Source: an uncultured virus (IMG/VR IMGVR_UViG_3300025030_000078) (Duplodnaviria; Heunggongvirae; Uroviricota; Caudoviricetes). Taken from it: a stretch of 64,000 nt of DNA. Numbering within the stretch: position 1 is the stretch's first letter; each line of letters starts with the position of its first letter. Positions 34,994 through 64,000 of this stretch are shown piece by piece. Below the pieces are notes generated by a model. The model did no database searches. It was not told the DNA's origin and saw nothing but the letters and a program-made list of their open reading frames with translations. The position numbers were made by a program, and so were the translations under genes. The stretch is from IMG/VR virus record IMGVR_UViG_3300025030_000078. One strand, written 5' to 3'.

Positions 34994-34994
34994 A

Positions 34995-46343: not shown

Positions 46344-46583
46344 ATGCAGAACAAAAAAAGATTAGTAGAACTACTGGTTAGGTTGAAGTCGGCTAACAAT
46401 TTTTATAGTCGCGCAAGCGATACCGAAAGGGGTAGAATTTTAGATGCTCTCGAAAGAACTTTCGATGAGTTGGAAACTTTCGGGTATCACAGATCCTTTG
46501 GTGTTTTATGGACTTTATACGGAGACGAGTTTACAAAGTTTGAATTTAAAAGAAGTATGGAGGAATACATCGCTACATTATAA
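46344..46583 (+). CDS. Hypothetical protein
   Basis: AAGGAG RBS. Confidence 0.65.
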   Translation: MQNKKRLVELLVRLKSANNFYSRASDTERGRILDALERTFDELETFGYHRSFGVLWTLYGDEFTKFEFKRSMEEYIATL

Positions 46584-46617
46584 TGTTCGCATTATGATGT
46601 TGTGATAAAATCAACCT

Positions 46618-46944: not shown

Positions 46945-46945
46945 T

Positions 46946-47197
46946 ATGGCTCTTAATGTTAAGAAATTAAAGAAAATAAGAAAGTTTGGAAGATTACGTT
47001 TTACCAACGATCCCCGTTACAAGGAAAAAACCATGTTTGTTATTTATGAGAAGGCTAACGAGGAGAGAAGGAAACTGTTTGATAAAGAGATGGACGATTA
47101 TATCCAAGCTGTTGAGTCCGGAAAGATAAAAGCCGGAGAGTCTTTGTTGAAGATCCCGTTTGTTGAGGACAAGAATCCGGAAACGAAACAAGAATAA
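46946..47197 (+). CDS. Hypothetical protein
   Basis: Coupled ORF. Confidence 0.6.
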   Translation: MALNVKKLKKIRKFGRLRFTNDPRYKEKTMFVIYEKANEERRKLFDKEMDDYIQAVESGKIKAGESLLKIPFVEDKNPETKQE

Positions 47198-47276
47198 TAC
47201 TGGAACGCCCCTCATAAGTAGGACGGATTGGTTTTAGATCTTCGCTTCCGGATTCTTTTTGGTGTAGAATCTGACT

Positions 47277-47852
47277 ATGGCAAAGGAAAAGAAATTAGAT
47301 CTTTCTAAATATCCTAAGAAAAACAATTTACCAAAAGAACCGCAGGAACACAAAAGAGTAGGTAGACCGACAAAGTACAAACCGGAGTTTGCACAGATGT
47401 TGATAGATTTTTTTAGTATTGACCCAACTTATGAAGAAGAGGTCACTTATACGAACAAAAAAGGGGAAACTTGGTCTAAAACAGAGAAGAAACCCAACTT
47501 TTTACCCACGTTCGAACGTTTTGCACACTCTATTGGAGTAAATGACGATACGGTAGTTACTTGGGCGAAGGCTAAAAGGTCTAAAGGAAGCGCTAAATAT
47601 CCAGAGTTTTCCGCCGCATATACGCGTGCGAAGCAGTTACAAAAGGATATTCTCGTACAAAATGCCCTTGCGGGAAGATACAATCCGGCTTACGCCATAT
47701 TTTTATCTAAGAACATTACCGACATGAGGGATAAAGTAGAAGTGCCGGTTGATGACAAAGGTAATCCAGTCCCATTCGTCTCCGGATTTAATTTTGTAAG
47801 ACCTACAGATAATAAAGACGATGGAAAGACCGACAATAACTCCGACAATTAA
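47277..47852 (+). CDS. terS: Terminase small subunit
   Basis: GRPTKYKPE, PTFERFA..IGV, YPEFSAAY and AIFLSKN motifs; precedes TerL. Confidence 0.88.
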   Translation: MAKEKKLDLSKYPKKNNLPKEPQEHKRVGRPTKYKPEFAQMLIDFFSIDPTYEEEVTYTNKKGETWSKTEKKPNFLPTFERFAHSIGVNDDTVVTWAKAKRSKGSAKYPEFSAAYTRAKQLQKDILVQNALAGRYNPAYAIFLSKNITDMRDKVEVPVDDKGNPVPFVSGFNFVRPTDNKDDGKTDNNSDN

Positions 47853-49344: not shown

Positions 49345-49363
49345 AAAAGGTTATACTTAATTT

Positions 49364-51139
49364 ATGGATGAACAAACAACCACAGTAGAAATAACAGATG
49401 CGGATGTTTTAGTCTTACAGCAAGAAGAAAAAAGTGCGTTAGAGTACAGAGAAAGAAAACACGATGACTGGACGGAGAATTACACTTTATACAGAGATAA
49501 AGTTATTACGAATCGCTTAACACAAAGACAGACTGTAAATGTTCCTCTAATGAAATATGTTTTAAATACGCTTCTAAAAGAGATGATGGATGCTCCGCAA
49601 CTCTATTTTAGTAATCTTAGTAACGATCAGCAAAAAGAAATCTACTATAACGAATATTGGAAAGAAACCTTCAAAATAAACAAACTGGTCATCAAAGACC
49701 ATATAGATAAAAAACAAAATGCTTTGTTTGGTAGGGCTTTTAAAAAACTTAACATAGAAAACGGCAAGGTAAAGATTAGTCTTGTAGATCCTCAATGTAT
49801 GTTGGTTCACAGATACGTCGATCCTTCCGATATTGATTCCTCTCCGGCGTTAATTGAAACCGATATCTTTGTGACTTTGGACGATATCTTGGAAAATGAA
49901 GAATACTTGGAAGAAGGTAAAAATCAAGTAAAGATGTATTTCTCCGAGGAAGCCGGAAGATTAGAGTCCGAAGAGAATTTTGACAAGGCTTCGGAGAAGA
50001 CGGATAGATTAAAGAGTATTGGAGATGAAACCGTAGAAGATCCTTTGCTTGGAGAAACCTATGTGGAACTTCACGAAGCATACAGGTTTGAATGGAACGA
50101 TAAAAAGGATCAAAGGGTCATAATGAGATACGTTCTTGCTGTAACGAAATCAGGAACCTTCAAACTTCATAAAGCACTTCTATCAGATGTTATAGGTAAA
50201 ACTTCAGATAATTTTTGGGATACTCACTTTCCTTACACTTCTTGGGCTTCAGATCCTGAAGCTACAGATTTTTGGAGCGATGGTGTTGCAGATATTATTA
50301 GAGCCATTAACAAAATTCTCAATGTTTGGTTTAGTCAGTTGGTAGAAAACAGAACTTTGCAGAACTTTGGAATGAAATACTACGATTCTACAGATAAGAA
50401 GTTTGTACCACAGACATTCGCTCCGCAACCGTTTGCACATCTTCCAGTACCCGGAGATCCGAATAAGATCATCAAAGACGTTATTACAGGTAATTTATCC
50501 GGAACACTAGAAGAAATGACGTTCTTGATAACCCTTGCGGAAAAGGCTACCGCCGCAACTTCCGCTAATTCCGGGGCTATTGAGCCGAAGAAAGTAACTT
50601 TAGGGGAAGTGGAATATGCTTTAGCGAACGCACAAAAAAGAATAATGATTCAACAGGTGTTTTATACAGAGGATTGGAAAGATCTTGGTACTAAATATTC
50701 CAAATTCCTTGAAGCCGCCGGGGATCAGTTAGACGATTTAACAGTTTATAAAAAAGGAAGAATGGGAAAGAAGACATATAAAAAACTTATCAAACTTGGA
50801 GATTGGAGCGACGACGAAGGCTACGCTTGTGAGGTCAAGACCATTTCGGATCAACAGGATCAGGACATAGAAGAGCTTCAGAAATTGGAGATTTTAAAGA
50901 ATGAGATGCCCGATAATGTTCCTTTGGTTTCTATTCGAAGGCGTAAGATGATGGAGTTCTCCGGTCTATCTCCGGATGATATTAGTCAGGTGGAGGAGTT
51001 CGAAAGACAAAGGACTGCAACTCCGCTTGCGCCCGTTGAAGAAGTACCTTCTGAAGTTGCGGTAAATGCCGGCAATACCGGAGCCGGAAACGCTACTCCG
51101 GGAATCCCGGAAGTTCCGGACATTGCCCCTAAAGTTTGA
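49364..51139 (+). CDS. Portal protein
   Basis: 591 aa, after TerL; HFPY..W..DP...FWSDG motif. Confidence 0.85.
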   Translation: MDEQTTTVEITDADVLVLQQEEKSALEYRERKHDDWTENYTLYRDKVITNRLTQRQTVNVPLMKYVLNTLLKEMMDAPQLYFSNLSNDQQKEIYYNEYWKETFKINKLVIKDHIDKKQNALFGRAFKKLNIENGKVKISLVDPQCMLVHRYVDPSDIDSSPALIETDIFVTLDDILENEEYLEEGKNQVKMYFSEEAGRLESEENFDKASEKTDRLKSIGDETVEDPLLGETYVELHEAYRFEWNDKKDQRVIMRYVLAVTKSGTFKLHKALLSDVIGKTSDNFWDTHFPYTSWASDPEATDFWSDGVADIIRAINKILNVWFSQLVENRTLQNFGMKYYDSTDKKFVPQTFAPQPFAHLPVPGDPNKIIKDVITGNLSGTLEEMTFLITLAEKATAATSANSGAIEPKKVTLGEVEYALANAQKRIMIQQVFYTEDWKDLGTKYSKFLEAAGDQLDDLTVYKKGRMGKKTYKKLIKLGDWSDDEGYACEVKTISDQQDQDIEELQKLEILKNEMPDNVPLVSIRRRKMMEFSGLSPDDISQVEEFERQRTATPLAPVEEVPSEVAVNAGNTGAGNATPGIPEVPDIAPKV

Positions 51140-51153
51140 TAGAATAAAAAAAC

Positions 51154-51474
51154 ATGATGAATCCTTACGACAAGGTATTAGAACAAAAAGGTTTAAAGTA
51201 CGAAGAACTAACTCCGGAAGAGAAGGAACTTTATCAGAGAGCTTCTAAAGGTGTTAAGGCTGTAACAGTCGAAGATTTAAAGGATCACTTGGAGGAAATG
51301 CTTTACACAATGACTATGGAACTTTGCGATACTCCGGATACCCCTGATCTACAAGATAAAAATAATAAACTAAAAGCTAGAGTAAAGAATTACCTTTTGT
51401 TGAGGGCTTTTATCGAGGTTCCGGATAAAGTGGCTAGAGCTATTCAGAGGGAAATAGAGGAAACGCAACAATGA
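51154..51474 (+). CDS. Hypothetical head-module protein
   Basis: ORF after the portal gene. Confidence 0.65.
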   Translation: MMNPYDKVLEQKGLKYEELTPEEKELYQRASKGVKAVTVEDLKDHLEEMLYTMTMELCDTPDTPDLQDKNNKLKARVKNYLLLRAFIEVPDKVARAIQREIEETQQ

Positions 51475-51591
51475 GAAATTTCTTGTCAGAAATTGGAAGA
51501 TACGGATTTAGAATTGCTTTGAACAATTTACTACTTTCGTGGGTAATGAATTTTATAGGAGCGAAAAGTTTTCGTGTAGGATACAAAAAAA

Positions 51592-51831
51592 ATGCCATAC
51601 ACAATTAAAAAATCTAAAAGTAAAAAGGACGATAGACCGTATAAAATTGTTAATACCCAAACGGGTAAAGTTGTAGGTTCTTCCAAAACTAAAAAGAAAG
51701 CAGTAGGTAGTATGATGCACAGGGAGGACGCTATGATGAAGAAAGAAGGTTCTATGAAAAAAGAAATGAGTAAAAAGACAGTAAAGAAAACCGTAAAAAC
51801 TTCTGTTAAGAAAGGCGCGAAAAAGAAGTAA
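51592..51831 (+). CDS. Small Lys-rich protein
   Basis: MPYTIKK...TGKVVG.SKTKKKA pattern. Confidence 0.6.
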   Translation: MPYTIKKSKSKKDDRPYKIVNTQTGKVVGSSKTKKKAVGSMMHREDAMMKKEGSMKKEMSKKTVKKTVKTSVKKGAKKK

Positions 51832-51869
51832 ACTTGACAAAGTAAGCTTCTTTGACCATAATTTTTAAT

Positions 51870-52259
51870 ATGTCAGAAAAAACATTAAATCCCGCAACAT
51901 TAAATGATTCCGCTAGAGATTACCTAGAAGAGATATTAGCTAAAGATCTTAACTCCCTAACTGTTTACGATATTGGTTTTTTGAAAGCTAGAGTAGCTTA
52001 TCTTACCGCCGATCAAAGAGAATTCTTTTCAGATGCCCTAAAAGGCAAAATCAAAGGTATTGATTTTGTAGAAGAGGACGAAGAAGAAGTTGCTCCTAAA
52101 AAAGTTAGAGAAGTTAAAGTGGATGAGGACGGAAAAAAAATTATAGATCCTAATGATTACGATCAAAAAACCTTGATCCAAATGTGTAAGGATGCAGATC
52201 TAAAATTCGATCCCAAAATGAATAAACAGCAATTAGCTGATTTATTGAATGAAAGATAG
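51870..52259 (+). CDS. Hypothetical protein with C-terminal HeH/Rho-N-like motif
   Basis: TTGACA-17-CATAAT promoter points to ATG 51870; ends KMNKQQLADLL. Confidence 0.6.
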   Translation: MSEKTLNPATLNDSARDYLEEILAKDLNSLTVYDIGFLKARVAYLTADQREFFSDALKGKIKGIDFVEEDEEEVAPKKVREVKVDEDGKKIIDPNDYDQKTLIQMCKDADLKFDPKMNKQQLADLLNER

Positions 52260-52321
52260 TTTAAAAAGCAAATAAGAATTGCTACTAACCCCGAAATTAT
52301 CGGGACTGTTTAAGGCAAAAC

Positions 52322-53224
52322 ATGACGACAAAACCTATTACAAACCAAAGAACAAAAAAAGAAATACGCGAGGAAGTCGCTAAAATCGACAAGGAAGTTC
52401 CAGAAACAAAAAAATTCGTAGAAATAATGACTGCCGAAGAGCAGAAAAAAGAGATTGAGGAAAATCCCGAAGTAACGGAAGAAGAAACCGAAACCCCAGA
52501 AAACGAAGAAGAAATAGAGATTCCGGAAGAAGAAACTCCGGAGACTGAAGAAGAGTCGGAAGAGGAAGAGCCGGAAACTCCGGAGACACCACAAGCCCCA
52601 CAACCTAAAAAAGAATTACCTCCTATTGAAGACCGCTATCGCGAAGCCGGACAGGAAGCGATGATTCTTAATTCCAAAAATAAAAAGTTTTTAGAAACTG
52701 TAGAGGAAGCGGAGAACATTCCGGATCCTACCATCGACGAACTAAAAGAGTATGCAAAACAAATGGGATCAGAATACGACGATCTTGACGTTTTTGCACA
52801 GAATGTTCTAAAAGAGAATCTCCTAAATAAGAAAAGGTTTGGGAAGATTAGCGGACTCGTAGCCGAGGAAAAACAAGTAGCGAAGTGGGTAGGTAAAGTC
52901 GAAAGTTTCTTAACAGACGAAACAACAATCCAAAAGTACCCTGCTTTATCAGGACTTACGGATGAATTTATAAAATACGCTACTAAGAAAAATCATATAA
53001 ATGCGGATCTTGACTTGTTAGTTGCCGGATTTATGTGGAAGCAACCAAACAAGCCCGTTAAAAGATCTGTTCTTTTACCAAGAAGTAGGGGCGGAGCCGG
53101 AGCGCCAATCGTTCCTGTATCAACCGATCTTACCGAAGATGATGCGATGGTGTACAGAAAAAAGGGCGATTTCAAAAAATATAAACAGCTAATAAGACAG
53201 AAGAAAATAAAGACCACAATCTAA
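52322..53224 (+). CDS. Scaffolding protein
   Basis: Glu/Pro-rich N-terminus; precedes the capsid gene. Confidence 0.75.
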   Translation: MTTKPITNQRTKKEIREEVAKIDKEVPETKKFVEIMTAEEQKKEIEENPEVTEEETETPENEEEIEIPEEETPETEEESEEEEPETPETPQAPQPKKELPPIEDRYREAGQEAMILNSKNKKFLETVEEAENIPDPTIDELKEYAKQMGSEYDDLDVFAQNVLKENLLNKKRFGKISGLVAEEKQVAKWVGKVESFLTDETTIQKYPALSGLTDEFIKYATKKNHINADLDLLVAGFMWKQPNKPVKRSVLLPRSRGGAGAPIVPVSTDLTEDDAMVYRKKGDFKKYKQLIRQKKIKTTI

Positions 53225-53357
53225 ATTCCATCCCTCTTGACATTTATCCGGAAAGAACTCAAAATGTAAATGTAGAGTTTAAAAACGCTAACCCCAATCA
53301 TAATCGGGACTGCTTACTCCATGTAATAATTTCGTTTCTACGAAAGGAAAACCGATT

Positions 53358-54455
53358 ATGAACACTTATCCTACAAAGCTAGTCGAAGCCTTCGCCTTAC
53401 AGGCACTTGAAGTCTTCTATATGATGTCCGTATCCGAAGGGATTACGAACAACGATTACGAAGGTTTGATTGAAAACAAATCTTCTAAAGTAAATATTTT
53501 AACCTTTGGTGCTATTTCAACGCACAATTACACAGGCGCCGATATGTCGGCGGATGATCTAACAGAGAGCAATGCTCAACTTGTTACTGATCAGGCTAAA
53601 TATGTGTACTTTACTGTTAAGACTTGGGACAAGTTCCGATCTTACATTAAAGATCCCGAAAATCCTGTTGCTAAACAGGTTGCTTCCGAAATTAAGAAAG
53701 TTATCGACGTCTATGTACTTGGTTTCTATGGGGATGCCGCGTCAGGAAACTGGCTTGGTACTTCATACACAACCGGTACTGTTACAGTTGATGTAACAAC
53801 TGGTTTAGTTACCGGATCCGGTACAACCTTCGCTTCTTCAATGGTTGGAAAACCATTTAAAGCTTTGGGACATACTGATTGGTATAGAATCAAGACCTTT
53901 ACTAACACGACCTCTATGGTTATTGAAGATGATAGCGATGACCTAACAAGTGCATATACCGGAGGTGCTATCGCCGGAGGTGCTACATACGAGATTCAAG
54001 GTAATACTGCAAAACAAGTTACCAAGTCCACAATCTTTGCAGAGTTTATCGAAATGCAGACTGTTCTAACAAACCAAGAAGTTCCAGAGGAAGATAGATG
54101 GGCGGTTGTTCCTGCTAAGTTAGCCGCTTTGATTCGTCAAGCTCCGGAATATGTAGGTGAAGCTGCAAGTGAAGGCGGACGAGAAGCTGTAATGAATGGC
54201 GCTCTTCCTAAGAGATTCGCAGGATTTACAGTTTACGAAGTCTCCGATGCTCGTATAAGTGGAGATTCCACTAATGGGTATCACGTTATGGCAGGACACA
54301 AATCCGCTATAACCTTCGCAATGGGCTTGACCGAAAATGGAGTAGAAGATGCTATCGGTAACTTCGGAAAGAGAGTTAAACAACTCTATGTGTACGGAGC
54401 TAAAGTAGCAGACGAGAGACGCAAGGCATTGGTACACGCTCTTTGGAAGCTCTAA
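53358..54455 (+). CDS. Major capsid protein (P22-coat-like) with an inserted beta-rich domain
   Basis: TNNDYEG, DQAKY, VPEEDRWAVV, AGF.VYE, GHKSAITFA and YVYGAKV motifs. Confidence 0.88.
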   Translation: MNTYPTKLVEAFALQALEVFYMMSVSEGITNNDYEGLIENKSSKVNILTFGAISTHNYTGADMSADDLTESNAQLVTDQAKYVYFTVKTWDKFRSYIKDPENPVAKQVASEIKKVIDVYVLGFYGDAASGNWLGTSYTTGTVTVDVTTGLVTGSGTTFASSMVGKPFKALGHTDWYRIKTFTNTTSMVIEDDSDDLTSAYTGGAIAGGATYEIQGNTAKQVTKSTIFAEFIEMQTVLTNQEVPEEDRWAVVPAKLAALIRQAPEYVGEAASEGGREAVMNGALPKRFAGFTVYEVSDARISGDSTNGYHVMAGHKSAITFAMGLTENGVEDAIGNFGKRVKQLYVYGAKVADERRKALVHALWKL

Positions 54456-54473
54456 AGTAAGCTAGATTTTTAA

Positions 54474-54497
54474 CCCGGATCCCTTCGGGGATCCGGG
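54474..54497 (+). terminator. cUUCGg tetraloop hairpin after the capsid gene, no U-tract
   Basis: CCCGGATCCC-TTCG-GGGATCCGGG. Confidence 0.6.
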
Positions 54498-54519
54498 AAG
54501 CCGAAGGAATAAAAAAATT

Positions 54520-55446
54520 ATGGGTGCATTTAAACTAAAAACACAATTACCTAGAACAACGCAAGATGAAATTGATAGAATCCAAGCTATTGCTACTGGA
54601 TTAAGAAACACCACAGAAACAAATTTCCTTACAGCTTTGCGCGACTACCTCTATAATGAGGTTATATTAGAAGATAGTGCGGACAGAATCGTTATTGCCG
54701 CTGGAATAACCGTACCTACGGGAGATTCGGGCTTCAAAAAGGGTGCTGTCTTTATTAAGAAAGATGCTTCGGATGATGGTAGATACTACAATTCCGGAAA
54801 TGAAATTGTTTCTGTTTGGGGAGCAACTGGTAGTCCGTCTCCAAGTGCATCATCGTCACCAAGCGCTTCCGCGTCGGTCTCGGTATCTCCAAGCGACTCT
54901 CCTTCAGCTTCAGCATCGCTGTCGCCATCAGCTTCAGAAAGTCGCTCTTCTTCAGCCTCGCCATCACCAAGTGCTTCAGAGAGTCGATCTTCTTCGGCTT
55001 CAGCATCGCCTTCCGCTTCGGTGTCACCAAGCGTTTCTCCTTCAGTATCGAAATCACCATCGCCAAGTGCTTCTGTATCACCAAGCGCCTCGAATTCGCC
55101 ATCACCAAGTCCTTCAGCTTCGAACAGTCCGTCTCCTTCATTATCGGTAAGTCCTTCCGCTTCGGTGTCACCAAGTGCTTCCGGAAGTCCGTCAGCTTCG
55201 GCATCGTTATCACCAAGCCCTTCAGCTTCGGTAAGTCTTTCGGTGTCGCCAAGTTCTTCGGAAAGCGCTTCCGCATCTCCAAGCGCATCGGTGTCACCTT
55301 CAGCTTCAGTATCTCCGAGCGGATCAGAATCACCTTCACCTTCACCAAGCGCTTCGTTATCGCCGAGCGCTTCTGCTTCATCTTCAGTTAGCGTCAGCGC
55401 GTCACCTTCGGTATCGCCAAGCGCTTCTGCTTCTCCAAGTGTATAA
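54520..55446 (+). CDS. Putative capsid decoration protein with a mucin-like Ser/Pro tail of about 200 aa
   Basis: Globular N-terminal ~100 aa followed by SPSxSx repeats; directly after the capsid gene. Confidence 0.85.
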
Positions 55447-55506
55447 TAGGTCATTCGTTTGACTAAAAAGGTGTATTTAATGTTCAGATAGTGCTATTAT
55501 CATTCC

Positions 55507-56400
55507 ATGATAAAAAATAAAGTTTCTGTCGTAATACCCTCCCGAAACGAACAATTTCTCTCAAACACAATCAAAGATCTTTTAAAAAATGCTAGAGGTG
55601 ATATAGAAATTATCGCTGTACTCGATGGTTATTGGGAAAAACCGGATAAAATAGTCGAGGACAATCGTGTTATTTATTTACACAAAGGGGAGTCCGAAGG
55701 CATGAGAGCCGGGATAAATTCCGCAGTAGCCGTTTCTACCGGAGAATTCATTATTAAAGTAGACGGGCATTGTATGTTTGGAGAAGGTTTCGATGAGATT
55801 TTAAAAAAAGATTGCGCGGAAGATTGGGTCGTTGTTCCTACTAGAAAAAGACTTGATGCGGAGAACTGGTGTATTCAAGATGTTGGAAAACCGGATATAG
55901 ACTATATGTTTTTATCCTTTCCTAATGATCCGGCGGACTTTGGCGGAGCCGGTCTAAACGGTAAAGTTTGGGAAGAAAAAAACAGGGATCCGGAATTAAA
56001 GAACAAGAAGATTGATGATTTAATGTCCTCGCAAGGTTCAATGTGGTTTATGCGTAGAAGTTATTTTGATTTCTTGGAACTAATGGACGAAGAAAACTAC
56101 GGTACTTTTTGGAATGAATTTCAAGAGATTGGTTTAAAAGCGTGGTTATCAGGCGGAAGAGTTGTTGTTAATAAAAACACTTGGTACGCACATCTTCATA
56201 AAGGTAAGAAATACGGAAGAGGATACTTCTTAGCGGAAAAGGAACTGATAAAAGGTAGGAATTATACTAACAAATGGATAAACGAAAAGGTTTGGCACAA
56301 ACAGAAATATAACTTAGCTTGGCTAGTAGAAAAATTTTATCCGGTTCCAACATGGTCGGAAGATAGGAGTTTATGGGTAGGCAATTACAAAATAGATTAG
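55507..56400 (+). CDS. GT-A glycosyltransferase, GT2/GT27-like
   Basis: VSVVIPSRNE, KVDGHC and EIGLKAWLSGG...YAHLHK motifs. Confidence 0.9.
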   Translation: MIKNKVSVVIPSRNEQFLSNTIKDLLKNARGDIEIIAVLDGYWEKPDKIVEDNRVIYLHKGESEGMRAGINSAVAVSTGEFIIKVDGHCMFGEGFDEILKKDCAEDWVVVPTRKRLDAENWCIQDVGKPDIDYMFLSFPNDPADFGGAGLNGKVWEEKNRDPELKNKKIDDLMSSQGSMWFMRRSYFDFLELMDEENYGTFWNEFQEIGLKAWLSGGRVVVNKNTWYAHLHKGKKYGRGYFLAEKELIKGRNYTNKWINEKVWHKQKYNLAWLVEKFYPVPTWSEDRSLWVGNYKID

Positions 56401-56942
56401 AGCTTGCGCAGTATTTTGCAGAATTGGGTTTTAAAAAGGGCGTTGAAGTTGGTGTAGCAGAAGGAATATACTCTTTAGTTTTATGCCAAAATATTCCCGG
56501 ATTGGAACTTCATTGCGTAGATCCGTGGGATACTTATAAAGATAATCAACGCGGTGGCGGTAAGGAAAAGCAATATCATAATTTCGAATTAGCAAAAGAA
56601 AAGTTGACTCCATATAATGTTACATTCCATAGGAAAATGAGTATAGACGCTGTTCGAGATTTTGAGGATGGTTCTTTAGATTTTGTTTATATAGATGGGA
56701 ATCACAACTTTGATTATGTAATAGAGGATCTTGTAGCTTGGGGAAGGAAAGTAAAAATGGGTGGAATTATATCCGGACACGATTACTATCACTTCACAGA
56801 GTCCGGAGTTGTGGAAGCCGTGGACGCCTATCTAAAGGGTAATAACATAAGAGATTGGGTTCTAACCCATGAAAGAGAAGGTAGTTTTTATTTCTTCAAG
56901 CAGAAGAATCATTCAATAAAGGTAAAGGGATGGAGACAATAG
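56373..56942 (+). CDS. SAM methyltransferase (Methyltransf_24-like)
   Basis: GVEVGV..G, VDPW, DFVYIDGNH and GGIISGHDY motifs. Confidence 0.9.
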   Translation: MGRQLQNRLELAQYFAELGFKKGVEVGVAEGIYSLVLCQNIPGLELHCVDPWDTYKDNQRGGGKEKQYHNFELAKEKLTPYNVTFHRKMSIDAVRDFEDGSLDFVYIDGNHNFDYVIEDLVAWGRKVKMGGIISGHDYYHFTESGVVEAVDAYLKGNNIRDWVLTHEREGSFYFFKQKNHSIKVKGWRQ

Positions 56943-57562
56943 AACTTATTAAAAACATATTCAAGTTGGATCTTGGGGGAAAATCCCCCACAGAGATAGA
57001 CGATGTTGGAAGGTTAGATCTTGCCGCCTTATTTAGAATTTCCGGATTTAAAGTCGGGGCGGAGATTGGCGTAGAGCAAGGAGAATACTCTAAAGCTCTT
57101 TGCAAATTGAATCCCAACTTACATTTATTCTGCGTTGACGCTTGGACTGCTCATAAGGAATATAAAGACCATATTACTCAACAAAAGTTTGATGATTTTC
57201 TTTCTATAGCTAAAAAGAAACTCAAAGGGTTTAATGTCACTTTTATCAAGAAGTTTAGTATGGATGTAGTTAAAGACTTTGAGGACGGTTCTTTAGATTT
57301 TGTTTATATAGACGCAAATCATGGATATAAATACGTTTTGCAGGATATAACCGAATGGAGTAAAAAGGTCAGAAAGGGCGGTATTGTAAGTGGACATGAC
57401 TATATAAAAAGAACCTCTCCTAGAACGCATCAAGTAGTACGGGCAGTTGACGAATATGTAAAAGATAACAATATAAAAACTTGGTTTTTGTTCGGAAGCA
57501 AAAATAAACAGGAAGGTAAAGTTCGGGACGCCGCTAGATCTTGGGCGTGGGTAAAAGAGTAA
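56930..57562 (+). CDS. SAM methyltransferase (Methyltransf_24-like), paralog
   Basis: GAEIGVEQG, DFVYIDANH and GGIVSGHDY motifs. Confidence 0.9.
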   Translation: METIELIKNIFKLDLGGKSPTEIDDVGRLDLAALFRISGFKVGAEIGVEQGEYSKALCKLNPNLHLFCVDAWTAHKEYKDHITQQKFDDFLSIAKKKLKGFNVTFIKKFSMDVVKDFEDGSLDFVYIDANHGYKYVLQDITEWSKKVRKGGIVSGHDYIKRTSPRTHQVVRAVDEYVKDNNIKTWFLFGSKNKQEGKVRDAARSWAWVKE

Positions 57563-57628
57563 CATGGAAGAAACGGTACTATGGTCTGTTATGGTAATAA
57601 TTATTTATTTCTTTTATAAGATTTTAAA

Positions 57629-58615
57629 ATGAAATACGATTTAAGCATTTTAATACCGGCAAGGAATGAAGAATTTTTAGCAAGAACTGTACAAAATATT
57701 CTACAGAATATTAGAGGTAATACCGAAGTTATTGTTTCTTTAGATGGTTATTGGGGCGCAGTACCCGTGAATCCTAGAGTTACAGTTATTCATTTTCCGG
57801 AGAGTATTGGGCAAAGAGCCGGAACTAATCAGTTGGCAAGACTTTCTAAAGCTAAGTATGTTATGAAGGTGGACGCCCATTGTTGTTTCGACGAAGGTTT
57901 CGACGTTAAGTTGATGTCCGAAATGCGCGATGATTATACGATGATTCCTCTTATGAAGCATCTTCATGTTTTCGATTGGAAGTGTAAAAAGTGTGGGAGC
58001 CAATGGGATCAAGGAAGAACACCACAACAATGTATGATTCGTGTAGGAAGAGATGGCAAGGGAGCCGAGCCTAATCCTGCTTGTGACAACAAGACAGATT
58101 TTGAACGCGTGTTTTTTTGGGAAGCTAGAAAGTCTCCGGTTAATATAACTTATCGTTTTGATAGGGAACTTATTTTTCAATATTGGAAAGAAATATCTTT
58201 AAGACCGGAACTACAAGTAAATGACAAACTGGTGGAAACAATGTCTATTCAAGGATCCTGCTTCATGTTAACTCGTGAAAAATATTGGGAACTTGATATT
58301 TGTGACGAAGGACATGGAAGTTGGGGACAACAAGGAACAGAAGTCGCGTGTAAAACTTGGTTGTCTGGTGGTAAACTGATAGTGAATAAGGATACTTGGT
58401 ACGCTCATTTATTTAGAACGCAAGGTGGGGATTTTGGCTTTCCCTACCCTAATCCGGGTATACCAAAAGCTAGACAATATTCGCAGGGATTGTGGTTTAG
58501 CGATTTTGAAACATTGAAGAGAAGATGGAAACCGGCTATACACGATCTAAAGTGGTTGATAAATAAGTTTGCGCCTGTACCTGATTGGCAAGATTGGGAG
58601 GAGGTGCAAAAATAA
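57629..58615 (+). CDS. GT-A glycosyltransferase, GT2/GT27-like, with a Cys-rich insert
   Basis: LSILIPARNE, KVDAHC and WGQQGTEVACKTWLSGG...AHLFR motifs; CKKC insert. Confidence 0.9.
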   Translation: MKYDLSILIPARNEEFLARTVQNILQNIRGNTEVIVSLDGYWGAVPVNPRVTVIHFPESIGQRAGTNQLARLSKAKYVMKVDAHCCFDEGFDVKLMSEMRDDYTMIPLMKHLHVFDWKCKKCGSQWDQGRTPQQCMIRVGRDGKGAEPNPACDNKTDFERVFFWEARKSPVNITYRFDRELIFQYWKEISLRPELQVNDKLVETMSIQGSCFMLTREKYWELDICDEGHGSWGQQGTEVACKTWLSGGKLIVNKDTWYAHLFRTQGGDFGFPYPNPGIPKARQYSQGLWFSDFETLKRRWKPAIHDLKWLINKFAPVPDWQDWEEVQK

Positions 58616-58624
58616 AAAGGTAAA

Positions 58625-59338
58625 ATGAAAAAAGAAATCATCTACTATACTTGTAACACTCATAGGGAAGATATAGAAATGGCTTGTAGAAGGCAGTTAT
58701 TAAAATCCGGTTTGCCTATACTTTCAGTATCCCGTGAAAAAGAAATAGATTTTGGCGATACGCGTATTATCTTACAAGGAGCTAGAAGTCCTGAAATGAT
58801 GCACAGACAGATTCTTGCGGGATTAGAAGCAAGCGACGCGGATTATGTTTTTTTATGCGAAAGCGATGTTTTATACCATCCCTCTCATTTTGAGTTTACT
58901 TCTCCGCAGGATACAGCTTATTACTACAACATAAATGTATGGAAATATTGGTTTGAAGACGGTCTTTGTGTTTGGGTCGATGATATGAAACAAGTATCCG
59001 GAATATGCGCTAATAAGAACCTGTTGTTACAACATTATAGAAAAAGAGTTGAAAGAATAGATAGAGAAGGAAAGTTTTCTATTGCTTGGGGTTACGAACC
59101 CGGATCGAGAAAACCTCCTTTAGGGTTTGATGAATTTCCTAGATTCGAATATAAATCGACTGTTCCTAATGTTTGTATAAGGCACGGAGAAACTTTAACT
59201 AAAAGTAAAAGATCTCCGGAAGAATTCCGCAATCCTAAATATGCCGAAGGATTCAAGACCGCCAGAGAAATTCCCGGATGGGGAAATATTAAGAGTATAT
59301 TTGATAGGGAGGCAATTGATGGTTCAACGACAATCTAG
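58625..59338 (+). CDS. Divergent GT-A glycosyltransferase
   Basis: QILAGLE...YVFLCESDVLY (ExD motif) and IRH. Confidence 0.65.
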   Translation: MKKEIIYYTCNTHREDIEMACRRQLLKSGLPILSVSREKEIDFGDTRIILQGARSPEMMHRQILAGLEASDADYVFLCESDVLYHPSHFEFTSPQDTAYYYNINVWKYWFEDGLCVWVDDMKQVSGICANKNLLLQHYRKRVERIDREGKFSIAWGYEPGSRKPPLGFDEFPRFEYKSTVPNVCIRHGETLTKSKRSPEEFRNPKYAEGFKTAREIPGWGNIKSIFDREAIDGSTTI

Positions 59339-59415
59339 GAATAATAACACAAATGTTTTTAATGTTTCTCATTGGAGAAAATTCGAAAATTTCCTAAGAA
59401 AGGTGGATTAATAAT

Positions 59416-61116
59416 ATGCCTACACTAGTTGCTAGTTATGATGGCGATGGTGCAAGTAATACAACGTGGGCTTTAGCGGGTGGTTACAACACTATCGCTG
59501 TTCAATCCTTCAAACCATCGGCATCAGGAAAACTCACATCGGCTAAGTTCTATTTGAAAAATGCCACAGCCGTTACAGGAACTTGCTATTTTGTCTTATA
59601 TGCACATTCTGGAACGTACGGGACAAGTAGTGTTCCTACAGGTAGCGTTCTAGCAACATCCGCCGGTCTTGATGTCTCGACACTAAACTCTACCTTTGCA
59701 CTAAAAGAGCTGACTTTCTCCGGTGCTAATCAGTACGATTTAGTTGCCAATACCGCTTATTGTATAGGTGTAACTTTTACAGGGGGTGATGGAGACCATT
59801 ATATACAGGTAGGGATTGATACCACCAATCCTTCTCACGAAGGTAATAGGGCGTCCTATATTTCATCGTGGACTGCCTATGCAAATGACCAAGCATTTTA
59901 TGTATACATAGAGGCATCATCACCGAGTGCTAGTGTTTCTCCCTCATCATCAGCTAGTCCGTCGTCTTCAATTTCCCCGTCTTCTTCGGAATCCCCATCG
60001 GTTTCGCCCTCGGCTTCTATCAGCCCGTCTTCGTCGGAAAGTCCTTCTGTCTCACCGTCAGCATCAGTAAGCCCATCGTCGTCAGTATCGCCATCTTTAA
60101 GTCCATCGGCTTCCGCTTCTCCGAGTTCTAGCGTTTCGCCTTCGGTTTCACCAAGTGCGTCTGTGTCACCTTCGGCTTCAGAGAGTCCGTCGGTATCACC
60201 TTCGGCGTCAATTAGTCCATCCGCTTCAGAGTCGCCTTCGGTATCCCCAAGTTCGTCAGTATCGCCGTCGGTCTCTCCTTCAGCTTCTATAAGTCCGTCG
60301 GCTTCGATCTCTCCATCAAGTTCGGAGTCTCCTTCGGTTTCTCCGTCAGCATCAGTATCGCCATCATCATCGGAGTCGCCAAGCATTTCCCCATCGTCTT
60401 CGGCATCTCCAAGTCCGGGAAGTCCTTCGGCGTCTATTTCTCCATCGGCATCGGTTTCGCCAAGCGCTTCAGAATCTCCATCGGTTAGTCCTTCGGCTTC
60501 CGTAAGTCCTTCAGCTAGTGAGAGTTTGTCACAATCTCCGTCGGCATCTATAAGCCCTTCGGCTTCAGAGTCTCCGTCGGTTTCGCCATCCGCTTCGGTA
60601 AGTCCGTCGAGTTCCGGGTCTCCTTCAATTTCCCCATCCGCTTCAGTTTCTCCGAGCGCTTCGGTAAGCCCGTCGTTTTCAGAATCTCCGTCGGTATCCC
60701 CGTCGGCATCCATGTCGCCTTCTTCGTCAGCATCGCTCTCAACGAGTCCTAGCGCGTCGATTTCTCCTTCAGCTTCGGAAAGTCCTTCAATTTCACCTTC
60801 GGCTTCTGTTTCACCTTCAGCATCCGGATCACCATCGGTTTCACCAAGTAGTTCTCTTTCAGCGTCACCGTCACCTTCGTCGAGCGAAAGTCCTTCATTA
60901 TCTCCGTCATCCTCGCCAAGCCCGTCGTCCTCGGTTTCCCCTTCTATCAGCCCATCATCTTCGGCTAGCCCTTCTCCCACGGAATGGGAATACAAATACA
61001 CAACAAGAAATACTGTTTATAGTGGTTATAAGTATTCAACGCGCGGAACTTCATATAGTGACAAATACTCAAATAGAAGCTCTTCTTATCAGGATAAATA
61101 TCGTTTTAGATCTTGA
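59416..61116 (+). CDS. Virion protein: beta-sandwich head, mucin-like Ser/Pro stalk of about 350 aa, Tyr-rich repeats
   Basis: QSF...S.KFYLK...G domain; [12 protein letters not shown] repeats; Y.DKYS.R repeats. Confidence 0.85.
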   Translation: MPTLVASYDGDGASNTTWALAGGYNTIAVQSFKPSASGKLTSAKFYLKNATAVTGTCYFVLYAHSGTYGTSSVPTGSVLATSAGLDVSTLNSTFALKELTFSGANQYDLVANTAYCIGVTFTGGDGDHYIQVGIDTTNPSHEGNRASYISSWTAYANDQAFYVYIEASSPSASVSPSSSASPSSSISPSSSESPSVSPSASISPSSSESPSVSPSASVSPSSSVSPSLSPSASASPSSSVSPSVSPSASVSPSASESPSVSPSASISPSASESPSVSPSSSVSPSVSPSASISPSASISPSSSESPSVSPSASVSPSSSESPSISPSSSASPSPGSPSASISPSASVSPSASESPSVSPSASVSPSASESLSQSPSASISPSASESPSVSPSASVSPSSSGSPSISPSASVSPSASVSPSFSESPSVSPSASMSPSSSASLSTSPSASISPSASESPSISPSASVSPSASGSPSVSPSSSLSASPSPSSSESPSLSPSSSPSPSSSVSPSISPSSSASPSPTEWEYKYTTRNTVYSGYKYSTRGTSYSDKYSNRSSSYQDKYRFRS

Positions 61117-61134
61117 AAGTGTTAGAATAAAAAT

Positions 61135-62595
61135 ATGAAAAGTTTTCTTATTCAAAGTTTTACCGGACTTTCTGATTTTGAGGACAAAGGCGCGAGAGGA
61201 GCTTTTAAATTCGGAAGTGGTTTGGATGTTAGACGAAACAGAGATTCTTTAAAGGCGGGGCAAGCATTAGCAAACGATTTAGCGTTGGGCGGTATTATGA
61301 ACTCTCCGGTTGTCGATGTAGTGAACTCTTCCGATGGAAATTCTTATTGGGGACTTGAAAACGGAAGAATTTTACAAAGAACTAGCGCAGGAGTTTGGAG
61401 TTTAAAATATACAGATGTTGAAGGAGATTTAAGAGGTATCGGAGAATGGGGAAACGACAACGGAGAAACAGGAATTTATTGGGCGACTCCTACAAAAATA
61501 CATAGAAAACCAATTCCCGGAAATGCAAATTGGACAGATGTTGATACAAGTGCCGGAAACCCTGCACAAACATATCCTAAAACTAATCTTACGAACACAC
61601 CTAACCATTTAATGAAAGTTATAAATGGCGGGTTTTATATAAACAACGGAGACGCTGTAGCGCTTATTGGTTATGATGAGTCTTACACCAATTTAGCTCT
61701 CCAACTTTTGCCGGATAATCTAGCCGAAGTATTATTGGACGACGGGATTTATGCAATTATAGGAGCCAGTCTTGGATCAGATAAGGAAGAATGTTGGCTT
61801 TATTCTTGGGATGGAATTTCCCTTAATTATAACGATAGAACTCCTCTCCCGTTTAAAGATATTAACGCAATAATAAAAGGAGAAGTAATTGTTGTTCAAT
61901 TCGGAAGCGATGGGCAATTATTCTTTGTAGGGGATTCTGGAAGGATCCCAATTACAGCTTTCCCCGGAGGAGGTCAAGTAGAACCGGCAGGAGTAGATGT
62001 TGATGGTGGACTTATTTTATTTGGAGTTTATGGTAATGACGTTTCTCGACAATCCGGAGTTTATGCTTATGGCAGAAATAAAAAGAACGCGGATTTTGTT
62101 CTGAATTTAGAATATCCTTTAGTTTGTGATTCTATAGATGCTGTAAGAAAAGTAGGATCTGATAAACTTATTGCTTATAAATCCGGATCACAGTATGGGG
62201 TCAAGAAGGTTGATACAGCAAACAAAATATCACAAGCTATTTACGAAACTATAGATTTAAAACTTCCTACAGAATACGGGAAGTTGCCTACCATATCTAG
62301 TATTGTTGTGGATATGGCTCCGCTACCGGCAGGGTGTTCTATAGAAATATGGCGAAGACTTGATAAAAAAGAAACTGAAGCCGGTACTGATTACGCCGGA
62401 GTTGCTACCGGTTTAAATGACGGTTGGCATCAATGTAGTTTGCAGGACGGATCCGGTTCTTTTACCGATGATGGGAAAACGGAAGCTATATTTAATTCGG
62501 AGGATAGTGGAAAAATCCTAGAGATCCGTGCTGTTTTAAATTGTTCTGGTAATAACAGCCCTGAAATCTTTAAGATCCAACCCTATTTTAGTTGA
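61135..62595 (+). CDS. Putative tail nozzle / stabilization protein
   Basis: SFTGLS N-terminus; beta-propeller-like composition; YETID motif. Confidence 0.55.
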   Translation: MKSFLIQSFTGLSDFEDKGARGAFKFGSGLDVRRNRDSLKAGQALANDLALGGIMNSPVVDVVNSSDGNSYWGLENGRILQRTSAGVWSLKYTDVEGDLRGIGEWGNDNGETGIYWATPTKIHRKPIPGNANWTDVDTSAGNPAQTYPKTNLTNTPNHLMKVINGGFYINNGDAVALIGYDESYTNLALQLLPDNLAEVLLDDGIYAIIGASLGSDKEECWLYSWDGISLNYNDRTPLPFKDINAIIKGEVIVVQFGSDGQLFFVGDSGRIPITAFPGGGQVEPAGVDVDGGLILFGVYGNDVSRQSGVYAYGRNKKNADFVLNLEYPLVCDSIDAVRKVGSDKLIAYKSGSQYGVKKVDTANKISQAIYETIDLKLPTEYGKLPTISSIVVDMAPLPAGCSIEIWRRLDKKETEAGTDYAGVATGLNDGWHQCSLQDGSGSFTDDGKTEAIFNSEDSGKILEIRAVLNCSGNNSPEIFKIQPYFS

Positions 62596-63086
62596 TGGAT
62601 CAAGACAAGGTTTATTATCCGGAAATTATAGAAACATACGCTTTGCCCGAAACTGTAGTGGAGGAAGAAACGTCCTCTACTAATTATGTTGGTAAAACCA
62701 ATCTTGTTCCAACTACACAAGTAGACAAGAAATTTCCTCCTAGAAACTTCGCAAGAGAAACTATAAGTGAGACGTTAAACACTCGAACAAAGAAGATTTT
62801 GGGGGAATTTACTTTCGGTCAAGTAGGTGCTATCGCAATCGGGGTATATGAAAACGGGGTGTCCGGAGATATTCGTATCACGCCTAACGGCATTACAGCT
62901 AGAAATATAAATGGGGAAACTACTTTTTCTATAGACGGAACAACAGGAGATGCTGTCTTTAAGGGAACAATAACCGCAGGTGCTTTAGTCACGGGAAGTG
63001 TCGTAGTACAAGGACAAGGGGCATTTGTAGTTAATGATGGAACTTATAACGTAATCCGCATGGGTTACTTTGCAGGAGGTTTGTAA
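62595..63086 (+). CDS. Tail protein
   Basis: TTFSIDGTTGDAVFKGTITAG motif. Confidence 0.65.
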   Translation: MDQDKVYYPEIIETYALPETVVEEETSSTNYVGKTNLVPTTQVDKKFPPRNFARETISETLNTRTKKILGEFTFGQVGAIAIGVYENGVSGDIRITPNGITARNINGETTFSIDGTTGDAVFKGTITAGALVTGSVVVQGQGAFVVNDGTYNVIRMGYFAGGL

Positions 63087-63418
63087 TGCCAGCCGAATAC
63101 GGTTTAAAAATAAGACTAGACAATGTTGCTGATGATGTGGAGGATTGTACGCCAAAACAAACAGCCTTCAATTCTAAATACCCTTGTGCGAAGATTCTTC
63201 AAGATGGAAAGGTTAGTGCTTCTACCGGATTTATTGTGGAAGTAAGCTTAGATTCCGATGTATCTTTTCCTTTCCAGTTACTTTGTTTTCTATATGACGC
63301 TAGTACACAAGAATATGAACCTGCTCAAAATGTTTCTTTTGATAGTACAAAAATTTATCTACCGGCAACGGCAAAAATAGAAGGAAGCTTTTTCTATTAC
63401 TTTGTTTGTTACGCATAA
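63086..63418 (+). CDS. Tail protein
   Basis: YGLKI...FNSKYP motif, shared with the next ORF. Confidence 0.65.
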   Translation: MPAEYGLKIRLDNVADDVEDCTPKQTAFNSKYPCAKILQDGKVSASTGFIVEVSLDSDVSFPFQLLCFLYDASTQEYEPAQNVSFDSTKIYLPATAKIEGSFFYYFVCYA

Positions 63419-63419
63419 T

Positions 63420-63839
63420 ATGGGAAATTACGGCGCTAAGATAGCAAAGAAAAAACATAATGTAGAAGATGGGGATCGTTACCAGATCTTCAATTCTAAA
63501 TATCCGGCGCTAAAATTAAAAGTATCCGGACAGGGTACGGGATCGCAGGTGGCAGGTAATGGAGGATTTACCATAACAATATCGCATAATTTGGGTTATG
63601 TTCCCCTATGTTTTGTAGATGGTCAGTACTTTAATCTTCCGGCGGAAGCCGTCGTTACCAAGTTCTCTAAGTGGAACAGATTTATATATCAAGGACTACA
63701 GGTTGGGGATTCTTATTACTACTACGCTGATACCACAAATTTATATATAGTGGCTTCTCTTTCCTATTTAACAGATGTTTACACTTTCGATCTTGATTAT
63801 ATGTATCATATTTATTATGACGAGGATACTTTAGCATGA
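63420..63839 (+). CDS. Tail protein
   Basis: YGAKI...FNSKYP and ITISHNLGYVP motifs. Confidence 0.7.
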   Translation: MGNYGAKIAKKKHNVEDGDRYQIFNSKYPALKLKVSGQGTGSQVAGNGGFTITISHNLGYVPLCFVDGQYFNLPAEAVVTKFSKWNRFIYQGLQVGDSYYYYADTTNLYIVASLSYLTDVYTFDLDYMYHIYYDEDTLA

Positions 63840-64000
63840 GTGTATTTACAAAAAGAGTAGACGCAGATATAAGGGATATAAACCATGTTTACGATGGAAC
63901 TTGGTCTGTTTGGGAAAATTCCGCTTATAACATAGGAAACCCCGGAGCAGTAATTAGGAATACTAGCTTACGTTTTATAGGTGTAAATATACCAAAAGAT
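63836..64000 (+). CDS. Structural protein, truncated by the window end
   Basis: ATGA-coupled and open to the end (LRFIGVNIPK). Confidence 0.55.
   Translation, partial: MSVFTKRVDADIRDINHVYDGTWSVWENSAYNIGNPGAVIRNTSLRFIGVNIPKD

Follow-up and report, generated by a model that had tools for sequence, protein, structure and literature searches.

A cassette of serine-rich proteins, glycosyltransferases and methyltransferases lies behind the capsid gene

We analysed a 64,000-nucleotide (nt) stretch of DNA, hereafter the window, from an uncultured Caudoviricetes virus (IMG/VR record IMGVR_UViG_3300025030_000078), in which a candidate glycosylation cassette occupies positions 54520-61116 of the plus strand. 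Behind the gene for the major capsid protein (MCP), this strand encodes, in order, a serine-rich protein (SP1), a glycosyltransferase (GT; GTa), two methyltransferases (MTa and MTb), two further GTs (GTb and GTc) and a second serine-rich protein (SP2; Table 1). The same succession had been proposed in the original prediction for this locus and was borne out here. The cassette starts 65 nt past the MCP gene and sits within the head-to-tail block of phage late genes. Its genes are co-directional and close-packed: MTa overlaps the end of GTa by 28 nt, MTa and MTb overlap each other, and only 9 nt separate GTb from GTc.

Both serine-rich proteins contain a long tract, (Ser-X)n, with a strict dipeptide period. 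The SP1 tract (residues 94-308; 215 amino acids (aa)) is composed of 50.2% Ser, 16.3% Pro, 14% Ala and 8% Val, and the SP2 tract (residues 159-529; 371 aa) contains 52.3% Ser and 18.1% Pro. Another serine stands at i+2 for 94% of the serines in SP1 and 90% of those in SP2, and the X position is taken by Pro, Ala, Val, Glu, Ile or Ser. The commonest Pro-to-Pro spacing is 6, which accounts for 14 of the 34 gaps between prolines in SP1 and for 40 of the 66 in SP2. These measurements agree with the earlier description of two tracts of about 200 and 350 aa, roughly half serine with regular proline, which did not mention the dipeptide period. A six-frame scan of the window found Ser-X tracts in SP1 and SP2 only, besides a 36-aa stretch at 52300-52635 on the minus strand.

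Serine is written with all six codons in these tracts (TCN and AGY), the AGY share being 27 of 108 in SP1 and 38 of 194 in SP2. The underlying DNA is barely repetitive, with Tandem Repeats Finder returning four weak rows of 2.2-2.7 copies at 74-80% match. Because all six serine codons are used and the DNA is non-repetitive, the Ser-X pattern is maintained by selection at the protein level in the tract frame and does not arise by chance. Codon choice has a further peculiarity: TCG and TCA make up 54% of the serine codons in both tracts (58/108 and 104/194), and in six other genes from the cassette-bearing unit TCT and TCC dominate and TCG is the rarest (9/146).

GTa and GTb are related to GT27 enzymes

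We ran profile and phmmer searches against 177,635 PDB sequences, using profiles of 30 sequences for GTa and 22 for GTb. GTa alone yielded three weak, generic GT2 matches. With its profile, the polypeptide N-acetylgalactosaminyltransferase (ppGalNAc-T) GalNAc-T4 (5nqa) ranked first (E 9.3e-13), aligned from position 5 to position 253 of a profile with 291. Only ppGalNAc-Ts and an unnamed glycosyltransferase (8uhv) aligned through the latter half of the catalytic domain, and all remaining matches ended by profile position 131. For GTb, 14 of the 15 phmmer matches at E <= 0.01 were ppGalNAc-Ts even with the single sequence (best E 1.3e-7), and the top 11 of the 17 PDB matches to its profile were all ppGalNAc-Ts (best E 2.9e-8). 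The label 'GT27-like' that the two enzymes had initially been given therefore holds, in that both profiles rank ppGalNAc-Ts first among solved structures.

The catalytic motifs point the same way. The D-x-H-C motif reads VDGHC in GTa and VDAHC in GTb, aligned with LDCHC and LDAHC of GalNAc-T4 and GalNAc-T1, and its D and H are invariant in all 30 GTa and 22 GTb sequences (D86 and H88 in GTa). The third metal-ligand histidine is likewise invariant in GTa (H229). In GTb, the segment 'SWGQQGTEVACKTWLSGG ... WYAHLFR' aligns to 'IWGGENFEISYKIWQCGG ... VGHIYR' of GalNAc-T7, which comprises the Gal/GalNAc-T motif and the third histidine; residues W232, G233, G236, E238, W244, G247, H260 and R263 are invariant. 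The Gal/GalNAc-T motif of GTa is more diverged ('FWNEFQEIGLKAWLSGG ... WYAHLHK'). Judged by their best full-domain relatives and by these motifs, GTa and GTb are related to GT27, yet they are not typical members.

Relatives of GTb are mostly longer proteins of ~550-725 aa with a C-terminal domain homologous to GTc (16 of 22 aligned), and the window has the split form. GTc itself gave no matches in Pfam, PHROG or NCBIfam, and its profile matched a single PDB sequence, at E 0.35. We utilized AlphaFold2 (AF2) to predict its structure (mean predicted local distance difference test (pLDDT) score 91.1), and a Foldseek search of the PDB with this model returned 271 matches at E <= 0.001. The top ranks were GT-A enzymes, including alpha-1,3-GalT (1g8o, E 4.9e-6), TarP and heparosan synthase. 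E79 and D81 of an E-x-D motif are invariant across the GTc alignment. By its predicted fold, GTc is thus a third glycosyltransferase, of the GT-A type.

GTb carries a Cys-rich insert (residues ~117-152) inside its GT-A domain, in which Cys119, Cys135 and Cys152 are invariant. The insert looks like a zinc-ribbon-like finger, which GT27 enzymes lack. One GTb homologue (L062) has an extra insert of ~170 aa at the next loop.

Over stretches of 19 residues, hydrophobicity in the 16 proteins tested never exceeded a Kyte-Doolittle value of 1.33, which leaves no candidate for a membrane helix. Since no membrane-like segment was found in these proteins, the enzymes of the cassette would be expected to act in the cytoplasm on a soluble acceptor, without a membrane step.

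The methyltransferases may act on a glycan

MTa and MTb are class I S-adenosylmethionine-dependent enzymes and paralogues of each other (47% identity). MTa alone had no matches in the PDB. GT-methyltransferase fusions occur among related loci: a GT2 domain is fused to Methyltransf_11 in L006, a weak case of a GT2-methyltransferase fusion is found in L067, and a TOD1-like GT is fused to Methyltransf_11 in L154 (7291-8733), an island in a genome of the candidate phyla radiation (CPR). These fusions in relatives favour a glycan-linked role for the methyltransferases, and we propose from the sequence evidence that MTa and MTb may be sugar O-methyltransferases.

Ser-X proteins and the glycosyltransferases occur together

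We searched IMG/VR for relatives of the SP1 N-terminal domain (N-domain). Of 153 candidate stretches, 89 encode such a relative, and we retained 80 loci. The SP1-family set comprised 85 loci with an SP1 homologue. In 62 of them SP1 was complete and followed by at least 1.3 kb of sequence, and 52 of these were distinct; 23 truncated or too short loci and 10 duplicates were left out. All 46 distinct loci with a Ser-X tail on SP1 have relatives of GTa, GTb or GTc downstream. The six distinct loci whose SP1 tail is of another type have no GTs and no other notable Ser-X open reading frame (ORF). In a tree of the SP1 N-domain, these six GT-less loci fall on one side of a single branch (support 82).

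Forty-six distinct lineages show the Ser-X architecture, with N-domain identities as low as 38%. Across lineages, the interval between SP1 and GTb is reshuffled and holds one to three GTa paralogues, zero to four GTc, zero to three methyltransferases and, in some cases, a gene of the epimerase or aminotransferase-like type. The pairing of Ser-X proteins with GTs is kept despite this reshuffling.

Next, we took GTb as the starting point. Among viral contigs, a GTb relative is encoded in 554 of 560 matching stretches, and we examined 80 loci. When at least 6 kb of downstream sequence was available, a Ser-X ORF lay downstream in 40 of 41 loci. The same was true of all 16 loci that had no window-type capsid gene or SP1 in at least 9 kb upstream. 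Among prokaryotic genome contigs, a GTb relative is present in 138 of 144 stretches, and 80 loci were again examined; of the 34 that extended at least 6 kb past GTb, 30 have a Ser-X ORF in that direction. As an internal control, a Ser-X ORF was found in the upstream direction, over at least 6 kb, in only 2 of 54 genome loci. Ser-X tracts at the genome loci have a median length of 470 aa, and the longest spans 1,921 aa. The enzyme-substrate pairing put forward in the original prediction is therefore supported by comparative genomics (46/46 versus 0/6, 40/41 and 30/34), and GT clusters standing independently of such proteins were for the most part not found.

Ser-X tracts sit on several proteins of the virion block

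The N-domain of SP1 is predicted by AF2 to form three helices and a small sheet (pLDDT 86.6). The best row of a wide VIA-align search, an 89-aa chain from the capsid of phage LME-1, had a Z of only 2.9, and other weak fold rows were N-terminal parts of long phage fibre-like or collagen-like proteins. Prediction of a complex of two capsid copies with the SP1 N-domain scored 0.00, which is no answer and speaks neither for nor against an interaction. In relatives, the N-domain bears either a Ser-X tail or a different repeat domain ending in ADANWRR..LG..Y. The conserved SP1 domain thus behaves as an anchor domain that displays a variable module. The position of the gene directly behind the capsid gene, the sole positive hint, suggests that SP1 may be a head decoration or head-fibre protein.

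The repeat-type tails define a sister clade (loci L024, L027, L042, L056, L058, L076 and L083; proteins P0002, P0003, P0006, P0009 and P0010). They consist of one to five copies of a ~70-90-aa repeat with the pattern '..L.NL..AING..G.G..Y.TGT..', followed by the ADANWRR..LG..Y ending. Within the sequence seen, phages of this clade have neither GTs nor Ser-X proteins.

SP2 and its relatives share a plan of variable N-domain, Ser-X tract and Tyr-rich xKY C-terminus. The SP2-type N-domain is a DUF2341 in L002 (E 1.9e-5) and LamG-like by eye in relatives; for SP2 of the window there are only Atlas leads, to DUF4082 and Lectin_like clusters (0.90-0.91). We propose that SP2 is a glycosylated fibre.

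The gene after SP2 encodes a conserved 486-aa virion-module protein. Neither this protein nor the products of the three following ORFs, which the original prediction named tail genes, matched a family in Pfam and PHROG scans, and the sole lead for it is an Atlas score of 0.89 to the P22 gp10-like PF11134 Phage_stabilise cluster. The protein has no Ser-X tract in the window. Among its full-length homologues from GTb-bearing viral loci, 13 of 19 carry a 60-96-aa Ser-X insert near residue 55. Ser-X sequences thus occur in the SP1 tail, in SP2-type fibres and in homologues of the 486-aa protein, and so form a portable module found on at least three proteins of the virion block.

Genomic context of the cassette

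The features of the window are collected in Table 1. Homologues of the MCP are 43-87% identical across 42 related viral loci. A promoter and terminator scan of 51000-63500 gave 24 against 25.7 and 13 against 10.5 in shuffles, which is not above the shuffled level and carries no information on how operons are arranged. In tblastn searches of an isolated-phage collection, GTa found no matches and the capsid protein four weak partial ones; by these searches, the phage is without a close sequenced isolate.

Table 1. Genes and other features of the 64,000-nt window
Feature	Position	Strand	Evidence and remarks
Large terminase, unit A	5306-6793		
Portal, unit A	6794-8614		
Capsid, unit A	15467-16414		No Ser-rich tail
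GT, unit A	16586-17674		Glycos_transf_1 family; PHROG 7162, E 1.1e-26; directly behind the capsid gene
Second GT/methyltransferase cluster	31442-35576	-	Three Methyltransf_11-type methyltransferases, DUF2334 protein, Glyco_trans_1_4 protein, TOD1/MUCI70-like GT
SDR nucleotide-sugar epimerase/dehydratase	41420-42532	-	PF01370, E 7.5e-55; below the NCBIfam galE cut-off
Small terminase	47277		PHROG 3064, E 1.3e-20
Large terminase	47821-49344		PHROG 2
Portal	49364-51139		Pfam SU10_portal, E 7.2e-7, slightly under the curated cut-off
MCP	53358-54455	+	PHROG 267 major head protein, E 9.9e-18
SP1, 308 aa	54520-55446	+	N-domain of ~105 aa (54520 to ~54798) and 215-aa Ser-X tract (54799-55443)
GTa	55507-56400	+	Pfam PF00535 Glycos_transf_2, E 5.1e-14; GT-A, GT27-like; DGH motif, WYAHLHK His
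MTa	56373-56942	+	Methyltransf_24 PF13578, E 7e-18; PHROG 2675 'DNA methyltransferase', E 7e-25
MTb	56930-57562	+	Methyltransf_24 PF13578, E 3.6e-17
GTb	57629-58615	+	Glycos_transf_2, E 4.9e-10; GT-A, GT27-like; DAH motif, 'SWGQQGTEVACKTWLSGG', WYAHLFR, Cys-rich insert
GTc	58625-59338	+	GT by predicted GT-A fold only; E79-x-D81
SP2, 566 aa	59416-61116	+	N-domain of ~158 aa, 371-aa Ser-X tract (59890-61002), Tyr-rich xKY C-terminus (61003-61113)
Conserved virion-module protein, 486 aa	61135-62595	+	Context gene after SP2

The window consists of two phage-like units, unit A (1 to ~26 kb) and unit B (43.1-64 kb), the latter holding the cassette. Unit A has its own large terminase, portal, capsid, Dit and GH25 lysin genes. 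Over window positions 1-20000 it is identical (100%) to IMG/VR record G001, and positions 44001-64000 do not match that record; projected from offset and record length, G001 would end at ~40.6 kb of the window. Unit B has two complete relatives (43.3 and 43.6 kb, with terminal repeats), whose genes in common with the window all lie at 43.1-64 kb, and the unit A capsid gene and a DnaB gene at 29028 are absent from five of five relatives. The arrangement may reflect prophages in tandem, or else an assembly that is chimeric or concatenated. Unit A also has a GT gene directly behind its capsid gene, and no Ser-X protein was found in this unit.

The minus-strand block at 26.9-43 kb holds a second GT/methyltransferase cluster and the epimerase gene at 41420. 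Both were considered as parts of the cassette and rejected, as they lie outside the 43.1-64 kb common to the complete relatives. The epimerase, which the original prediction had drawn upon as a partner of the cassette enzymes, is hence not assignable to the cassette phage. Epimerase-family genes do occur inside cassettes elsewhere, at 5 of 85 viral loci and 24 of 80 genome loci. The TOD1-like domain of the second cluster is the one that L154 has fused to a Methyltransf_11 domain.

Cellular counterparts and the probable host

We then considered which organisms carry the genome loci. Bin labels assigned 43 of the 80 to CPR/Patescibacteria, 22 to gamma- or betaproteobacteria, 5 to archaea and 10 to other groups, although labels of automated bins are unreliable. 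One 44,615-base contig in a Paceibacterota bin (L091) is the same record as an IMG/VR viral contig (L214), indicating that binning has placed some phage contigs with CPR genomes, where they count as 'genome' matches.

Five genomes of 0.6-1.1 Mb have the GTb/Ser-X island on contigs of 240-744 kb, and none of the five matched the window-type capsid profile (0/5) or Terminase_6N (0/5). These cellular islands are flanked by ordinary or mobile genes, for example TatC and an IS200-like Y1 transposase, which indicates that the kit occurs in cells too. In L154, positions 2484-3848 match PF01797 (IS200-like Y1 transposase type; E 3.7e-11), and similar 'YH[VI]YN.G' N-termini are found in L130, where two copies flank the island, and in L148 and L166. 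L130 further has a giant Ser-X protein followed by a TatC gene. In an unrooted GTb tree built with a quick method, 12 of the 13 large-contig sequences form one clade (support 98) beside two phage sequences, and the remaining one is placed among phages.

The host of the phage is likely a CPR bacterium. It is a tentative idea, on which we put less than even weight, that CPR/Patescibacteria cells and their phages share a mucin-like glycoprotein kit of GT27-like initiators, GT-A extenders, sugar methyltransferases and (Ser-X)n stalks, with the phage wearing a host-like glycan coat. The stalks of cells would then be carried on giant proteins of up to ~2,400 aa, and those of phages on head-decoration-like, fibre and tail-hub-like proteins. 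Such a coat might serve mimicry, shielding, or sticking to the host's own partner cell.

Proposed role of the cassette and alternatives

Taken together, the gene content and its conservation make it probable that the cassette is a virion-protein O-glycosylation module, which would perform cytoplasmic O-glycosylation, possibly with methylation, of Ser-X stalks. Late in infection, soluble cytoplasmic GTa, GTb or both would move the first sugar from a nucleotide sugar to serines in both (Ser-X)n tracts, that of SP1 and that of SP2. The glycan would be extended by GTc, which most relatives have as a fusion to GTb, and both Methyltransf_24 enzymes would methylate the sugars. SP1 would be anchored on the particle via its conserved N-domain, and SP2 via its conserved Tyr-rich C-terminus, which would leave the lectin-like N-domain of SP2 at the tip of the stalk. 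The outcome would be stiff, protease-resistant, sugar-coated stalks.

A number of observations weigh against this proposal. The acceptor, the sugar, the order of the enzymes, the methylation of sugar rather than of DNA or protein, the virion location and the attachment of SP1 to the particle are points that we infer. The fold of the SP1 N-domain had no Foldseek match in the PDB or BFVD at E <= 0.001 (best in BFVD, E 5e-3). Pfam scans of the short and long GT forms found no ricin-type lectin domain, and the Foldseek TM-scores of GTc are modest (0.3-0.5). Resemblance to GT27 does not fix the acceptor either: one article interprets a gene of an Actinomyces-type host, annotated 'polypeptide N-acetylgalactosaminyltransferase', as coding for a TagN-like enzyme that transfers GalNAc to teichoic acid (PMC11032452). 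PHROG 2675 labels the methyltransferase family 'DNA methyltransferase', a label that is generic in PHROGs. In the PDB, the methyltransferase profile matched 6g7d only, weakly (E 2.8e-4, 39 residues); this entry is probably a mycobacterial sugar O-methyltransferase and is not used here as support. The 46:0 and 0:6 table reflects a single evolutionary change, that is, one independent pair with no statistical power. Finally, the pairing has exceptions. Given at least 6 kb of downstream sequence, a Ser-X ORF is missing behind GTb in 1 of 41 viral loci and in 4 of 34 genome loci (L114, L117, L149 and L152). At 3 kb, the ORF is present in 47 of 54 viral loci (misses L174, L175, L177, L185, L197, L202 and L207), and 8 of 53 genome loci miss it.

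We consider it unlikely that the Ser-X tracts are unglycosylated, flexible or extended spacers, serving as hairs or linkers, and that the GT/methyltransferase cassette acts on a teichoic-acid-like or capsular polymer of the host envelope, a soluble metabolite or phage DNA, bringing about a lysogenic-conversion-like surface change or protection from restriction. The teichoic-acid reading of GT27-annotated enzymes (PMC11032452) and the PHROG name of the methyltransferases would fit such a role, as would the phage GTs that glucosylate DNA or change the host serotype, according to another article (PMC12619734), and the few GTb loci with no Ser-X neighbour. However, membrane segments and flippase or bactoprenol-type parts are missing, and Pfam scans of the window detected no hydroxymethyl-pyrimidine or other base-modification genes. 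The cassette moreover lies between two Ser-X proteins inside the head-to-tail block, and Ser-X ORFs follow GTb in 40/41 and 30/34 loci and precede it in 2/54. In the sister clade, tail, fibre tract and GTs are jointly absent, either through loss or because they were never acquired.

It is quite improbable, in our judgement, that the cassette instead glycosylates the capsid or some other structural protein, as in mycobacteriophages and chloroviruses, with the Ser-X proteins being mere neighbours such as adhesins. The cassette does start one gene past the capsid gene, and the known phage cases concern capsid and tail-tube subunits (PMC11600133 and PMC12619734). Yet the capsid protein of the window has no Ser/Thr-rich extension, and members of the clade with neither GTs nor Ser-X proteins (L024, L056, L058 and L076) have a capsid protein that is 50-52% identical to it. 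GTb and Ser-X proteins are also paired in the 16 of 16 viral loci with no such capsid, and in cellular genomes (capsid 0/5). That the Ser-X frames are not real genes and instead are wrong-frame or opposite-strand artefacts of a compositionally odd stretch is scarcely credible. Long ORFs do overlap both tracts on the opposite strand (54786-55454 and 59898-61001), and one lies in another plus-strand frame (54743-55150). The opposite-strand ORFs are mirror artefacts. The Ser-X frame runs on from a conserved, confidently folding N-domain and in SP2 also into a conserved C-terminal motif, serine is kept at alternate positions through both the TCN and AGY codon families, and the architecture is repeated in 46 distinct lineages, to 38% N-domain identity.

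Comparison with known systems

Glycosylation of the Ser-X stalks by enzymes of the cassette, as we propose, would have its closest phage precedents in mycobacteriophages. In cluster O, three tandem GT genes lie downstream of an O-methyltransferase gene, and the enzymes modify capsid and tail-tube proteins, according to one article (PMC11600133). A second places the glycans at the C-termini of capsid and tail-tube subunits and describes them as a shield (PMC12619734). Both cite Freeman et al. 2023 (Cell Host Microbe) for mycobacteriophage glycosylation, and that work is also mentioned in PMC12582341. The likeness to these phages (Che8; Corndog and cluster O) is that phage GT genes and a methyltransferase gene are placed among structural genes. 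The acceptors differ, being C-termini of capsid and tail-tube subunits in mycobacteriophages and here putative Ser-X modules of 215-371 aa on separate decoration-like and fibre proteins. Mycobacteriophage glycans have been shown chemically, whereas the cassette described here is known from its genes alone and has GT27-like GT-A enzymes. The host is actinobacterial in the one case and probably an ultra-small CPR bacterium in the other.

Gram-positive bacteria produce serine-rich repeat glycoproteins such as GspB, Fap1, SraP and PsrP, which are encoded in gtfA/gtfB and accessory-Sec loci and present a binding domain on a glycosylated stalk. It is these proteins that the Ser-X tract resembles most. 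Shared features are serine at every second residue and dedicated soluble cytoplasmic GTs encoded alongside. The GT4 enzymes GtfA and GtfB, SecA2/SecY2 and the LPXTG anchor of those systems are not in the cassette, whose GTs are of the GT2 or GT-A kind only, and Pfam scans of the window found no Sec genes. Unlike serine-rich repeat systems, the tracts described here have proline every six residues, SP1 and SP2 have no signal peptide or hydrophobic N-terminus, and the genes lie in a phage structural block.

The chlorovirus PBCV-1 has atypical N-linked, methylated glycans on its major capsid protein, and its A064R is a GT-GT-methyltransferase enzyme in capsid glycosylation. The two cases are alike in having virus-encoded cytoplasmic GTs joined to a methyltransferase and, in our proposal, methylated glycans on a virion protein. 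PBCV-1 differs in being a eukaryotic virus with N-linked capsid glycans and no Ser-X acceptor modules.

GT27 enzymes (PDB 5nqa, 1xhb, 8v9q, 6iwq, 2d7i and 2ffu) are the best solved relatives of GTa and GTb and have the DxH motif, the Gal/GalNAc-T motif and the third histidine in common with them, with a similarity that is modest (profile E 1e-8 to 1e-12). Eukaryotic GT27 enzymes act on Ser/Thr/Pro-rich tracts. Unlike them, the phage enzymes have no ricin-type lectin domain and no membrane anchor, and GTb has a Cys-rich insert and usually a fused second GT-A domain.

Discussion

As far as the accessible literature says, chemical proof of virion glycosylation by phage enzymes exists for mycobacteriophages only. 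The original claim that no substrate-plus-enzyme cassette had been described in a phage was too strong, given the cluster O precedent. Our searches of freely accessible articles, supplements aside, returned no paper that pairs Ser-X acceptors and GT27-like enzymes in a phage or a CPR bacterium. Four aspects look new: a portable Ser-X module dedicated to serving as acceptor, enzymes of a GT27-like lineage, a family of this size, and the fact that ultra-small bacteria and phages have it in common.

If the proposal is true, sugar coats on phage particles would be widespread, with a GTb relative in 554 of 560 matching viral stretches. Glycosylation would rest on a portable Ser-X acceptor that can be grafted onto different virion proteins, and relatives of the enzymes that initiate mucin glycosylation in animals would be at work in phages. 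A compact set of soluble enzymes with a simple peptide tag could potentially be used for O-glycosylated proteins made in bacteria. The kit, if indeed shared between cells and phages, would represent, for prokaryotes and viruses, the equivalent of mucin-type O-glycosylation, built on the same enzyme lineage as the animal one. These findings, if confirmed, would offer a first approach to the surface biology of uncultivated CPR bacteria and of the phages that infect them.

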